DNA of 64,000 bases, from assembly GCF_058153355.1 (NCBI RefSeq), contig NZ_CM177019.1. One strand, 5' to 3'. How positions within the stretch are numbered: position 1 is the first letter of the stretch; every line of letters begins with the position of its first letter. The notes under the pieces were generated by a model. The model worked only from the letters and a program-made list of their open reading frames with translations, ran no database searches and had not been told where the DNA came from. Of this stretch, positions 6,681-31,558 are shown in pieces. A program made the translations under genes and the position numbers.

Positions 6681-7132
6681 CTGATAAGACGCGTCAGCGT
6701 CGCATCAGTCAACCGGCTTGGGCGTTAGATGTCGGATGCGGCGTGACCGCCTTATCCGACCTATGGGGTGGAGCACTTCACAGCGGTGTAGGCCTGATAA
6801 GACGCGCCAGCGTCGCATCAGTCAACTGGCTTGGGCGTTAGATGTCGGATGCGGCGTGACCGCCTTATCCGACCTACGGGGTGGAGCACTTCACAGCGGT
6901 GTAGGCCTGATAAGACGCGCCAGCGTCGCATCAGGCAACCGGCTCGGGCATTAGATGTCGGATGCGGCGTGACCGCCTTATCCGACCTACGGGGTGGAGC
7001 ACTTCACAGCGGTGTAGGCCTGATAAGACGCGCCAGCGTCGCATCAGGCAACCGGCTTGGGCGTTAGATGTCGGATGCGGCGTGACCGCCTTATCCGACC
7101 TACGGGGTGCCACACTTCACGGCAGTTTAGCG
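6681..7132. repeat. Tandem array of four ~113-bp REP/BIME units in the mqo-eco intergenic region
   Basis: The motif ctgataagacgcg recurs at 6681, 6794, 6907 and 7020 (period 113 bp); each unit holds two inverted REP-like palindromes (ctgataagacgcgccagcgtcgcatcag and gatgcggcgtgaccgccttatccgacctac). Confidence 0.8.
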
Positions 7133-25319: not shown

Positions 25320-25396
25320 GGTCGGCACGAGAGGATTTGAACCTCCGACCCCCGACACCCCATGACGGTGCGCTACCAGGCTGCGCTACGTGCCGA
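25320..25396 (-). tRNA. proL: tRNA-Pro (GGG anticodon)
   Basis: Minus strand reads CGGCACGTAGCGCAGCCTGGTAGCGCACCGTCATGGGGTGTCGGGGGTCGGAGGTTCAAATCCTCTCGTGCCGACCA: cloverleaf-compatible, GGG anticodon in a T-GGG-G context, TTCAAATCC T-loop, 3' CCA. Confidence 0.85.
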
Positions 25397-27658: not shown

Positions 27659-28666
27659 ATGAGTCTGGATATCAACCAGATTGCTCTGCACCAGCTTATC
27701 AAGCGTGATGAGCAGAACCTTGAGCTGGTGTTGCGCGATTCATTGCTGGAACCGACGGAAACCGTCGTTGAGATGGTGGCAGAACTGCATCGGGTCTATA
27801 GCGCCAAAAATAAAGCTTACGGCTTGTTTAGCGAAGAGAGTGAACTGGCGCAGACGCTGCGCTTACAGCGTCAGGGTGAAGAGGACTTTCTGGCCTTTAG
27901 CCGCGCGGCAACCGGTCGCCTGCGTGACGAATTAGCGAAATATCCTTTTGCTGACGGTGGCTTCGTGCTGTTTTGTCACTACCGTTATTTAGCTGTCGAA
28001 TATCTGCTGGTGGCGGTTCTGAGCAACCTGAGCAGTATGCGCGTTAACGAAAATCTCGACATCAACCCGACCCATTATCTTGATATCAATCATGCGGATA
28101 TTGTTGCGCGTATTGATTTAACCGAATGGGAAACCAATCCAGAGTCGACCCGGTATCTCACTTTCCTGAAAGGGCGAGTCGGGCGCAAAGTAGCCGATTT
28201 CTTCATGGACTTCCTCGGTGCCAGCGAAGGGTTGAACGCGAAAGCGCAAAACCGCGGATTATTGCAGGCGGTTGATGATTTCACTGCCGAAGCACAACTG
28301 GATAAAGCAGAACGGCAGAACGTGCGTCAGCAGGTCTACAGCTACTGTAATGAGCAATTGCAGGCGGGTGAAGAGATCGAGCTTGAATCGCTGTCGAAAG
28401 AGCTGGCGGGCGTCAGCGAAGTGAGCTTCACGGAATTTGCGGCTGAAAAAGGCTACGAACTTGAAGAGAGCTTCCCGGCAGACCGTAGCACGTTGCGTCA
28501 GTTGACGAAGTTTGCCGGTAGCGGTGGTGGCTTGACCATTAACTTTGATGCGATGCTGTTAGGTGAGCGCATTTTCTGGGACCCGGCGACCGATACCCTG
28601 ACCATTAAAGGCACGCCGCCGAACTTGCGCGATCAATTGCAGCGCCGGACGTCTGGCGGCAATTAA
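27659..28666 (+). CDS. yejK: Nucleoid-associated protein NdpA (YejK)
   Basis: 335-aa ORF starting [19 protein letters not shown]...; length and synteny. Confidence 0.9.
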
Positions 28667-28681: not shown

Positions 28682-28716
28682 GAATGCCAGATGCGGAGTG
28701 AACGCCTTATCTGGCC
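28682..28716. repeat. REP palindrome downstream of yejK, immediately 5' of the group II intron
   Basis: gaatgccagatgcggagtgaacgccttatctggcc, an inverted repeat gccagatg...tctggc. Confidence 0.55.
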
Positions 28717-29319
28717 TACAAGTGCGACAAGAAGTCGTCCAACATATTGTTTTGATAAATTATTTATATAAAACCAACTATTCCATTAGTTGTAGCCTAC
28801 TGAGGCAGGCAAAGCTGGTAACGGCTCTGTCTGAAGCCCTTGGGACAATGTAGCTTAGCAAATATTGCTTCAGTTAATCGTGAGAAAACCTGATCGCTAC
28901 AAGCATCATGCGGCGAGAGCGCTAGGCTGGGCGGTATGGTTAACATAGTGAACTGTCGTTAAACGTCGTAACAGAGAACGAGCCAAAGATGCTGATAGGC
29001 TTGCACCAAAAGGTAAGGGGTAAGGCTATTCCTGTTCGTAGTGGGAATACATGGACAATAACTCCCCCGGCGGATAGACAGAACCTAACCCGTTCTTTGT
29101 ATGTTGGTCGGAACTTGGTAAGCCCGAATTCTCGCCCTAGTGGCAGGGGCACCGTAAGGCAAACTGATGAGAATGCGGGTAAAGGAGGATGGAAAAAGCG
29201 AAAGCCGGACTGTAATCGTGCGGATAGAGGTTCAATATTTGCCTTAACGGGAAACCGTGCTGACTTCCATCTGGTCTTTAATTGCGAAACATCTGCGAAG
29301 GTTTCTTTGGATGACATGT

Positions 29320-30999
29320 ATGAAAATTACATCTAACAATGTAACTGCGGTCATCAACGGAAAAGGTTGGCATTCCATTAACTGGAAGAAATGCCATCAA
29401 CACGTTAAAACCATACAGACAAGAATCGCAAAGGCGGCATGTAACCAGCAATGGCGTACAGTCGGTAGATTGCAACGATTGCTGGTTCGCTCATTCAGCG
29501 CCAGAGCACTGGCGGTGAAACGAGTTACGGAAAATAGCGGGCGTAAAACCCCCGGAGTTGATGGTCAAATCTGGAGTACTCCAGAATCAAAATGGGAAGC
29601 GATATTCAAACTCAGGCGAAAAGGGTACAAGCCCCTACCGCTAAAAAGAGTTTTTATACCCAAATCTAATGGCAAGAAAAGACCATTAGGAATCCCCGTC
29701 ATGCTTGACAGGGCAATGCAGGCCCTGCATCTGCTGGGATTGGAGCCTGTATCGGAAACTAATGCAGATCACAACAGTTATGGTTTCAGACCAGCGCGAT
29801 GTACGGCTGACGCCATTCAACAGGTATGTAATATGTATAGTTCCCGGAACGCCTCGAAATGGGTTCTGGAAGGCGATATTAAAGGATGCTTTGAACACAT
29901 TAGCCACGAGTGGCTGCTTGAAAATATTCCTATGGACAAGCAAATACTCCGTAATTGGTTGAAAGCCGGGATCATCGAAAAAAGCATATTCAGCAAAACT
30001 CTCTCGGGTACACCCCAGGGAGGAATCATATCTCCAGTTCTGGCAAACATGGCCCTGGATGGACTGGAAAGACTGCTGCAAAATCGCTTTGGTCCGAAAC
30101 GCTCAAAAACATTCAGGAAACATCAGGTTCACTTCGTCCGGTATGCTGATGATTTCATCATTTCCGGAAAGTCGAAAGAACTTCTGGAGGAGAATGTTCT
30201 TCCGTTGGTGAAATCATTTCTTGCAGAAAGAGGGCTGACGTTATCCGAAGAGAAAACGGTCATCACTCACATTACTGACGGATTTGATTTCCTTGGGCAG
30301 CACGTCCGACGCTTCGGTAGAAAACTCATAATCAGACCAGCCAAGAAAAACGTTAAACAATTTCTTAGCAAGATCAGAGAGACTATTGAAGGTAACCGAA
30401 CGGTTCCTGCATGGGTGCTAATAAATCTGCTTAATCCAATCATCACCGGGTGGGCAAACTATCACCAACATGTAGCATCGGCAGAGACATTTAACTATGT
30501 CGACAACCAAATCTGGCGCAAAATCTGGCAGTGGTGCAGAAGGAGACATCCCGGCAAAGGCCGGAGATGGATCTTCCGAAAGTACCACACGACAATAAAA
30601 ATGTGTCATGGTCGATTTTATGGAGTCGATCCGGAGGGTAGGAAATATGTTCTGTCCCGGGCCAGCGACATCCATATTAATCGCTATATAAAAATAAAGG
30701 GAACGGCAAATCCATATGATCCCGAGTGGGAAACATACTTCGAAAGAAGGCTGGACTACTCATGGAAGAAATCCCAACAGGGGCAGAAAAGGATTCTCGC
30801 TATATGGAAAAGGCAAGGATCGCGCTGCCCTTTATGTGAGCAACCGATTAATCGCGATACAGGATGGAATGTTCATCATTTGCTCAAGAAATCTCTTGGC
30901 GGTAGCGATGATGTGAGCAATTTAGTCCTACTCCATCCCAACTGCCATCGACAACTACATAGTAATGACGCTGGTCTCCCACAAGGTGGAGGCTTATAA
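29320..30999 (+). CDS. Group II intron-encoded protein: reverse transcriptase / maturase / HNH endonuclease
   Basis: RT motifs (KKRPLGIPVMLDRAMQ, FVRYADDFIISG), a maturase X region, and a C-terminal HNH (CPLCEQPI...WNVHHLLKKSLGGSDDVSNLVLLHPNCHRQLH). Start codon uncertain: ATG at 29257, 29311 or 29320. Confidence 0.88.
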   Translation: MKITSNNVTAVINGKGWHSINWKKCHQHVKTIQTRIAKAACNQQWRTVGRLQRLLVRSFSARALAVKRVTENSGRKTPGVDGQIWSTPESKWEAIFKLRRKGYKPLPLKRVFIPKSNGKKRPLGIPVMLDRAMQALHLLGLEPVSETNADHNSYGFRPARCTADAIQQVCNMYSSRNASKWVLEGDIKGCFEHISHEWLLENIPMDKQILRNWLKAGIIEKSIFSKTLSGTPQGGIISPVLANMALDGLERLLQNRFGPKRSKTFRKHQVHFVRYADDFIISGKSKELLEENVLPLVKSFLAERGLTLSEEKTVITHITDGFDFLGQHVRRFGRKLIIRPAKKNVKQFLSKIRETIEGNRTVPAWVLINLLNPIITGWANYHQHVASAETFNYVDNQIWRKIWQWCRRRHPGKGRRWIFRKYHTTIKMCHGRFYGVDPEGRKYVLSRASDIHINRYIKIKGTANPYDPEWETYFERRLDYSWKKSQQGQKRILAIWKRQGSRCPLCEQPINRDTGWNVHHLLKKSLGGSDDVSNLVLLHPNCHRQLHSNDAGLPQGGGL

Positions 31000-31005
31000 A
31001 GGCTT

Positions 31006-31039
31006 GAGCGGTATGCGGGGAAACTCGCACGTACCGTTC
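31006..31039 (+). ncRNA. Group II intron domain V (catalytic hairpin)
   Basis: GAGCGGTATGCGGGGAAACTCGCACGTACCGTTC: a 34-nt hairpin with the AGC triad, 2-nt bulge and GAAA tetraloop typical of domain V, directly after the intron ORF stop. Confidence 0.75.
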
Positions 31040-31118
31040 TTAGGGGGCGGCGAGACAGTAATGAATCGCTGCTACCCGACAAAATAGCAATACCGTAATC
31101 AGGCATAATTTGCAGATA

Positions 31119-31149
31119 CAAAAAACCCCGCCGGAGCGGGGTTTTTTTT
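31119..31149. terminator. Bidirectional intrinsic terminator (rplY 3' end)
   Basis: aaaaaa-ccccgc-cgga-gcgggg-tttttttt: a perfect GC stem flanked by A and T runs, 17 bp downstream of the rplY stop. Confidence 0.7.
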
Positions 31150-31165
31150 ACAACTTATTCAGCGA

Positions 31166-31558
<393 letters not shown>

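Follow-up and report, generated by a model that had tools for sequence, protein, structure and literature searches.

How does a group II intron come to lie in a housekeeping intergenic region of an Escherichia coli chromosome, directly behind a repetitive extragenic palindrome (REP)? The question arises from a stretch of 64,000 nt (contig NZ_CM177019.1 of assembly GCF_058153355.1; the whole stretch is referred to below as the window), in which such an intron lies between yejK and the convergent gene rplY. Such a location is unusual in E. coli, where group II introns are known mainly from insertion sequence (IS) elements, Rhs-associated H-repeats and plasmids. Our best explanation, to which we give a probability of about 0.85, is that an intact, mobile intron of subgroup IIB, whose home is the srnB gene of IncF plasmids, retrotransposed ectopically into a look-alike of its target at the end of a chromosomal REP, and that it did so by sequence pairing.

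A complete intron with an intact protein

The intron is complete and spans 2359 nt (window 28722-31080, + strand). It starts with GTGCG (28722-28726; GUGCG in the RNA) and ends with ...CUACCCGAC (...CCCGAC at 31080), in agreement with the consensus boundaries (5' GUGYG, 3' AY), and its borders are those of the gap in the empty allele described below. Junctions of the intron with its sites can be written as CTTATCTGGCCTACRA^GTGCGACAAG and GCTACCCGAC^N10, where the caret, here and throughout, marks an intron boundary or point of insertion. Two Rfam models match, both clearly above their gathering scores, RF02012 (group-II-D1D4-7) over the 5' part of domain I (28774-28921, 112.5 bits, E=9e-24) and RF00029 (D5-D6) at 31004-31080 (65.5 bits, E=1.5e-11, gathering score 40). 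No second intron copy was detected by the Rfam scan of the 64-kb window. An RNAalifold consensus of eight relatives (77-100% identical) supplies the helices of domains I, II and III, with 174 pairs, 11 of them showing compensatory changes; the borders of domains I-III were taken from this consensus and, like those of domain IV, are approximate. All six domains were recovered, with the exon-binding sites (EBS) in domain I, a 34-nt domain V with its AGC triad and a GNRA loop, and a bulged branch-point A in domain VI. The original prediction had called a complete group II intron containing an open reading frame (ORF) from the GTGCG end, domains V and VI and the ORF itself; all of these lie where it placed them.

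The ORF within domain IV is uninterrupted and encodes an intron-encoded protein (IEP) that contains reverse transcriptase (RT), maturase and DNA-binding/endonuclease regions. We identified the Pfam domains RVT_N, RVT_1 (2e-40), GIIM (3e-23) and HNH (8e-10), and the YADD (aa 275-278), CPLC zinc knuckle and HH...N..H motifs are intact. The 580-aa version starting from a GTG at 29257 is a mechanical ORF only. The best match of the IEP in the PDB is the T.el4h RT (6ME0_C, E=2.4e-187), compared with E=2.5e-39 for LtrA (subgroup IIA) and about 1e-34 to 1e-37 for RTs of subgroup IIC. Thus, we assign the intron to subgroup IIB and, provisionally, to the chloroplast-like lineage, on the basis of IEP similarity, by which CL1 and CL2 are not separated, and of the geometry of EBS2.

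A second, 115-aa ORF (window 28989-29336, +) lies wholly within ribozyme domains I-III and has no Pfam match. The same ribozyme ORF is annotated as a gene in several public assemblies (e.g., at 268-615 of L017; L numbers designate loci recovered from public sequence collections), and is most likely a spurious gene call.

An exact insertion in an otherwise empty spacer

The surrounding DNA is that of E. coli (best identity to any complete genome 99.2% over 12 kb). Of 5,426 complete E. coli genomes, 5,425 have the yejK-rplY flank, and in each of these, K-12 among them, the exact site is empty. None of the 5,426 carries the intron on its chromosome; within this set it occurs only on two plasmids, at 97% identity. 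The intron 5' end had no matches in species-representative genomes. In the closest strains the spacer reads CCTACAA^AAAATAGC, i.e., ...TCTGGCCTACAA^AAAATAGC... is unbroken, and K-12 carries the empty allele CCTGCAAAAAATAGC (CTGCAA). The absence from K-12 that the original prediction suggested, and the empty spacer that it proposed to look for in other strains, are both borne out by these comparisons. The insertion is exact and lacks a target duplication, as expected for reverse splicing. An ancient, vertically inherited element that was lost elsewhere was rejected on the basis of the empty-site counts together with the near identity to plasmid copies.

The intron begins 2 nt past the REP palindrome and ends 40 bp before a terminator, which agrees with the non-coding position first proposed for it. 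No terminator-like site was found on the + strand between the yejK stop codon and the intron, which probably lies within the yejK 3' untranslated region (UTR). Given the sense orientation and the lack of an intervening terminator-like site, transcription by read-through from yejK is plausible.

The home of the intron is in plasmid-borne toxin genes

Within a collection of plasmids, this intron and relatives 77-99.6% identical to it were found on plasmids of the IncF type from Escherichia, E. albertii, Salmonella, Citrobacter and Enterobacter, where the copies overlap genes annotated as Hok/Gef; metagenome contigs and draft assemblies agree. The site used by the family is the last three to five codons of the type I toxin genes hok (L001, L005-L008, L019, L022 and L035) and srnB (L003, L004, L025 and L029). 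When the intron is removed in silico, full toxin ORFs are regained, with the ends ...EVAAFMAYE^SGK and ...NTVVQVTLAYE^ARK, which we take to be Hok and the SrnB of the F plasmid, respectively. There are two sublineages, srnB-type and hok-type, about 97% identical to each other, and the window intron is an srnB-type one. Among plasmid copies, that of pRHB33-C08_2 is the best match, with 10 differences in 2359 nt. The srnB homing target reads ...ACUCUGGCCUACGA^A.

The commonest srnB-type variant (L003, L025-L029) has a C to T change at window-equivalent position 30982 that ends the IEP five codons early (Q555*). Identical copies of this variant occur at srnB and at a REP in the chromosomal ybaL-gsk spacer, so the last five IEP residues seem dispensable for mobility. 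In two further srnB copies (L042 and L043), an indel close to window-equivalent position 29853 has broken the IEP into ORFs of 213 aa and about 122 aa; these introns have decayed at their home site. While the toxin gene is unspliced, its ORF is altered at the C-terminus and the 3' end of the mRNA is shifted by 2.4 kb. Splicing of the intron at its home site could gate toxin production; we found no literature on such gating of hok or srnB.

Target choice follows the exon-binding code

EBS1 and EBS2 both pair with intron-binding sites (IBS) in the 5' exon, and both pairings covary between the sublineages. Introns of the srnB type carry EBS2 CAGAG and EBS1 UCGUAG and are found at CUCUG-GC-CUACGA^A, and those of the hok type carry EBS2 CAUGA (or CAUAA) and EBS1 UCGUAA (or UCGUAG) and are found at U(C/U)AUG-GC-UUACGA^A. 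The EBS2/IBS2 pair is CAGAG/CUCUG in the srnB type versus CAUGA/UCAUG in the hok type, and the EBS1/IBS1 pair is UCGUAG/CUACGA versus UCGUAA/UUACGA. Over 14 distinct combinations of site and intron, the intron's own EBS1 and EBS2 form 9-11 of 11 Watson-Crick pairs, and the EBS of the other sublineage form 6-9; an intron's own EBS are at least equal to those of the other type in all 14 and better in 13. The hairpin presenting EBS1 is 100% paired, with one compensatory change. An RNAalifold stem that would have sequestered part of EBS1 was replaced by this 5-bp hairpin with an 11-nt loop, since the compensatory change lies in the latter.

At the window site, the 5' exon reads ATCTGGCCTACAA^A and the srnB target CTCTGGCCTACGA^A; positions -13 and -2 are the only ones at which they differ. 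The REP contributes, as its 3' arm and CTAC tail, ten consecutive bases identical to the srnB target (TCTGGCCTAC), and the target as a whole is composed of the REP 3' arm, the CTAC tail and two bases (AUCUGGCCUACAA^A). Ranked by complementarity to the EBS among about 123,000 positions on both strands of the intron-free window, the occupied site is in a tie for the top three. The window has three other REPs, all of the ATCAGGCCTACAC subtype; these are empty and pair with the EBS poorly. The CTGCAA allele of K-12 would lose one further IBS1 pair relative to the allele of the closest strains.

Positions 28964-28976 read CGUCG-UAA-CAGAG, with helices 100% paired, and provide the 5-nt EBS2 preceded by an N-EBS2a-A spacer. 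The hok type has a candidate EBS2a G, which faces T or A at -14. The geometry of the EBS2a/IBS2a assignment fits, but its pairing is not conserved at home sites and we did not use it as evidence. The first base of the 3' exon is A at every site for which this flank was recovered, leaving no EBS3-IBS3 covariation to assess; the internal loop GUUAAA (28958-28963) contains a U that is a candidate EBS3.

Two hok-type copies, L020 (ENA ERZ27260105) and L009 (pRHB40-C01_2), are ectopic insertions at the non-hok sites CAATCATGGTTAACGA^AACTCG and GGTCATGGCTTTCGA^ACAATG. These sites follow the hok-type EBS code and are not REPs. The gene just downstream of L020 is another RVT_1 fragment, adjoining IS66 genes, and this intron may be nested in another retroelement.

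Recurrent insertion at one REP subtype

Searches of public assemblies with the exact IEP sequence and its close variants turned up further chromosomal copies. One lies at the REP of the ybaL-gsk spacer (...GCCAGATGCGGCGTGAACGCCTTATCTGGCCTACGA^ACCGAC) in two NCBI assemblies (L026, L027), and the L026 intron has no differences from plasmid srnB copies. Another lies at a REP of the bacterial interspersed mosaic element (BIME) between leuQPV and rsmC (...GCCAGATGCGACGCGGGCGCGTCTTATCTGGCCTACGA^AGGGCT), with the 3' side seen in L016, the 5' side in L041 and an empty site in strain KE55; the L016 intron is 1 nt from that of the window and L041 carries a different intron variant. The last is a non-REP look-alike downstream of yebE (...AAACTGATCTACGA^; L040), which keeps CTG-NN-CTACGA^A. 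Thus, three of four distinct chromosomal sites, including that of the window, lie 2 nt past one REP subtype and the fourth retains the pairing core only, as predicted by a choice of target guided by sequence and not by structure.

Copies only 0-2 nt apart are found at the four chromosomal sites and on plasmids. The window copy is 1 nt from L016 and 1 nt from L017, and these three differ mutually by 1-2 nt. The ends of the L017 contig coincide exactly with the intron boundaries, as is typical for a multi-copy repeat. In one assembly (L028; GCA_042204225.1, ABUXTC010000036.1), an srnB flank on the 5' side of the intron is combined with a gsk flank on the 3' side. Either two intron copies recombined to form a plasmid-chromosome cointegrate, or the contig is a chimera produced at the 2.4-kb repeat by short-read assembly.

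Potential landing sites are common. By BLAST, the REP look-alike has a 30/30-base match in at least 5,055 records (over 5,000 complete E. coli genomes). It is occupied in none of those genomes, so spread seems limited by the rarity of the intron and not by a lack of sites. Among the matches listed for the exact 16-mer TTATCTGGCCTACRAA, which are mostly chance occurrences in unrelated phyla, are one to three per genome in several Citrobacter species (L046-L048, L061, L068, L069, L085, L086, L101) and in E. albertii (L050). Thus, landing sites borne by REPs are not confined to E. coli.

Proposed route to the chromosome and alternatives

We predict that the source was an srnB-type intron, which homes to the last few srnB codons on IncF plasmids (the 97%-identical sister lineage uses hok). 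The intron ribonucleoprotein (RNP) would have reverse-spliced into the chromosome of this strain's lineage at the look-alike site (REP 3' arm, CTAC and two bases), bound by EBS2 (CAGAG, 4/5 pairs), EBS1 (UCGUAG, 5/6 pairs) and the +1 A (IBS3). Cleavage of the bottom strand by the HNH domain, then target-primed reverse transcription (TPRT), would have completed the insertion. The REP would have been used because its sequence matches IBS2-IBS1, and not because it forms a hairpin. The new copy, in sense in the yejK 3' UTR and upstream of the shared terminator, could be transcribed by read-through and, in principle, also spliced. We consider the intron probably still mobile, as was first suggested from its intact HNH domain, given the copies at other loci that differ by 0-2 nt. 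This mechanism is ordinary for a mobile IIB intron; what is distinctive is that a repeated extragenic element gives it recurrent chromosomal landing sites.

Several points weigh against this explanation. The site is mismatched at -2 (C.A in EBS1/IBS1) and at -13, and these mismatches could lower the efficiency of insertion and splicing; that at -2 was already present in the empty allele and may reduce splicing of the window copy. Positions -14 to -25 and +2 to +10, which are read by the protein in EcI5, are not conserved between the srnB and REP sites. The candidate EBS2a, A28970, pairs with T-14 of the REP sites and not with A-14 of srnB, so the EBS2a rule of IIB1 introns is not cleanly obeyed at the home site. 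A pair in a 6-bp stem of domain I that is kept in every other relative and in the RF02012 model is changed from G-C to A.C (28899 G to A) in L016, L017 and the copy in the window. The activities in splicing, reverse transcription and DNA cleavage, like mobility, are predicted from sequence, and the jump may have taken place in the strain itself or have been inherited or transferred.

A tentative extension of ectopic retrotransposition, which we regard as unlikely, is that one REP subfamily (...CTTATCTGGCCTAC-RA^A) is being adopted by the srnB-type sublineage as a secondary, dispersed site of homing. Hints in this direction are that three REP loci have been hit, one of them by two intron variants, that a chromosomal copy is identical to plasmid copies, and that the candidate EBS2a (A) is better matched by T-14 at the REP sites than by A-14 at srnB. 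The mixed srnB and gsk flanks of L028, which could reflect a cointegrate via two intron copies, are a further hint. If true, secondary homing at REPs would open a path from plasmid to chromosome for a IIB intron that has an endonuclease, together with a multi-copy niche in E. coli similar to that of IIC introns at terminators.

The position directly 3' of a palindrome raises the possibility that what the intron recognizes is the structure itself, be it the REP hairpin or an intergenic stem-loop, and the original prediction accordingly likened it to introns that target structured intergenic DNA. To our knowledge, subgroup IIC introns lack an endonuclease (En) domain and EBS2 and recognize stem-loops (terminators, attC). 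REPs can extrude as hairpins in single-stranded DNA, and three of the four chromosomal sites are exactly 2 nt 3' of a REP palindrome. The window intron shares this intergenic position with IIC introns. Its IEP, however, has an HNH domain (E=8e-10), its RNA has a covarying EBS2, and the closest characterized relatives of the IEP are IIB/chloroplast-like. The home sites are hok and srnB coding sequence, the L040 site is not a REP and yet keeps CTG-NN-CTACGA^A, and none of the window's three REPs of the ATCAGGCCTACAC subtype, which pair poorly, is occupied. We therefore consider recognition of structure improbable. One element of that first reading holds, in that the association with REPs is recurrent; it is accounted for by a match to IBS sequence instead of a hairpin.

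Still less probable, in our judgement, is a dead remnant that is carried passively and whose REP neighborhood is coincidental. Such decay would be in line with the broken domain I pair at 28899, the mismatch of -2 with EBS1 and the presence of only one copy in the 64-kb window. Against it, the 559-aa ORF is intact with its YADD and HNH motifs, and insertion has occurred repeatedly at one REP subtype, far from chance. The 28899 change itself is found in L016, at another locus, and in L017, on a repeat-collapsed contig, each 1 nt away. Its occurrence at two or more loci implies that the change is compatible with mobility, or that it predates unsampled donor copies.

The least probable route is one through RNA, in which the intron reverse-splices into a transcript that contains a REP (for example, the yejK 3' UTR) and a cDNA of this RNA then enters the chromosome by recombination. 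REP hairpins stabilize mRNA and REP-ended mRNAs are abundant, and both the window and ybaL-gsk copies are in sense at 3' UTR-like positions behind convergent genes. This route is opposed by the leuQPV-rsmC copy, which is antisense to both flanking transcription units, by the intact HNH domain, which fits TPRT at a DNA target, and by the movement of the bacterial introns studied (Ll.LtrB, EcI5) via DNA targets (general knowledge; PMC8643678).

Relation to known systems

Among the known introns closest to that of the window is EcI5, a subgroup IIB1/CL1 intron of plasmid pO157 of E. coli O157:H7 that is used as a targetron (PMC8643678, citing Zhuang et al.). EcI5 and Th.e.I3 have the geometry of subgroup IIB, with a 3-nt spacer N-EBS2a-A between the 5' branch of ID(iv) and the 5-nt EBS2, and IBS2 at -13 to -9 (PMC8643678). 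Both EcI5 and the window intron belong to an ORF-containing, IncF-plasmid-borne type whose IEP has RT, maturase and HNH domains; in both, a 5-bp EBS2 pairs with -13 to -9, a 6-bp EBS1 with -6 to -1 and IBS3 is at +1, and the spacer is N-EBS2a-A. They differ in that the IEPs are only 53% identical and there is no match at the DNA level (pO157-bearing genomes gave no hit). Unlike EcI5, the window intron has its home in a hok/srnB toxin gene and has REP-adjacent chromosomal copies, and its EBS2a/-14 pairing is not conserved at home sites.

The best solved structure for comparison of the IEP is the T.el4h/Th.e.I3 RNP of Thermosynechococcus elongatus (PDB 6ME0/6MEC), which matches over residues 15-551 with the same domain order and whose EBS2/EBS2a architecture, as described in PMC8643678, agrees with that found here. 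That intron differs in its cyanobacterial host and in its targets.

For the proposed event itself, a parallel is Ll.LtrB of Lactococcus lactis, which reportedly retrotransposes ectopically into sites that resemble its homing site. Alike in the two cases are the low-frequency insertion into the chromosome, the retention of most IBS1/IBS2 pairs with relaxation of protein-read positions, and the passage from plasmid to chromosome. Ll.LtrB is a IIA intron of the mitochondrial-like lineage, whereas here the look-alike derives from a repeated REP, so that the same type of site recurs at several loci. IS1397 and ISKpn1 are DDE-transposase insertion sequences that target REP/BIME and insert in the REP/BIME loop. 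They resemble the window intron in the repeated use of REPs as chromosomal landing pads; in contrast, the latter is a retroelement that relies on RNA-DNA pairing and enters 2 nt 3' of the CTAC tail.

We found no description of a group II intron in hok/srnB or beside a REP, although our coverage of the literature was incomplete and this is weak evidence. An intron reported in F33 plasmids is described as "downstream of ycjA", which appears to be a different site.

Features of the locus

The window copy is on the G-rich (leading-sequence) strand, which for a single site has a prior of 50%. Upstream of rplY is an L25 ribosomal-protein leader (31472-31497, -; RF03131, 46.9 bits), and elsewhere in the window is a tRNA (25322-25395, -; RF00005), presumably proL by K-12 synteny; both are ordinary and undisturbed. 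Three tandem REP/BIME units of the ATCAGGCCTACAC subtype were identified at window 6791-7100 (-), matching Rfam naRNA4 (CssrE) above the gathering score (65-75 bits).

Table 1. Coordinates of the intron, its target and the adjacent genes in the window (CDS, coding sequence).
Feature	Position	Strand	Basis or remark
yejK CDS	27659..28666	+	Upstream of intron, same orientation
REP palindrome GCCAGATGCGGAGTGAACGCCTTATCTGGCCTAC	28686..28719	+	Sequence; weak naRNA4/REP match
IBS2 look-alike ATCTG (-13..-9)	28709..28713	+	4/5 pairs with EBS2
IBS1 look-alike CTACAA (-6..-1)	28716..28721	+	5/6 pairs with EBS1; C.A mismatch at -2
Domain I (approximate)	28728..29117	+	RNAalifold; RF02012 covers 28774-28921
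Candidate EBS2a (A), middle base of 3-nt spacer UAA between ID(iv) 5' branch (28964-28968) and EBS2	28970	+	Geometry of PMC8643678
EBS2 CAGAG	28972..28976	+	Covaries with IBS2
EBS1 UCGUAG, in 11-nt loop of 5-bp hairpin (29028-29032 with 29044-29048)	29036..29041	+	Covaries with IBS1
Domain II (approximate)	29122..29180	+	RNAalifold, several compensatory pairs
Domain III (approximate)	29182..29279	+	RNAalifold
Domain IV, contains ORF (approximate)	29290..31003	+	Consensus fold
IEP, 559 aa, RVT_N/RT/maturase (X)/HNH, stop codon included	29320..30999	+	ORF, Pfam
Domain V, 34 nt, AGC triad, GAAA loop, GAGCGGTATGCGGGGAAACTCGCACGTACCGTTC	31006..31039	+	Rfam, fold
Domain VI, bulged branch-point A at 31074, 6 nt short of 3' end	31043..31077	+	Rfam, consensus fold
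IBS3, +1 A, first base of 3' exon	31081	+	A at all 14 site/intron combinations with recovered 3' flank
Bidirectional intrinsic terminator common to yejK and rplY, A6-CCCCGCCGGAGCGGGG-T8	~31119..31148	both	Sequence; - strand site also listed in terminator scan
rplY (L25) CDS, convergent	31166..31450	-	CDS; not disturbed by insertion

Implications

The case shows how a plasmid intron of a post-segregational-killing toxin gene can reach the chromosome via a repeat that fortuitously carries its target code. Once there, 2.4-kb intron repeats can mediate recombination between plasmid and chromosome, and they can break short-read assemblies. With its pairing rules known, the lineage could be used as a natural, EcI5-like targetron chassis. 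For the plasmids themselves, a home in hok and srnB raises the question of whether splicing gates production of the toxin.

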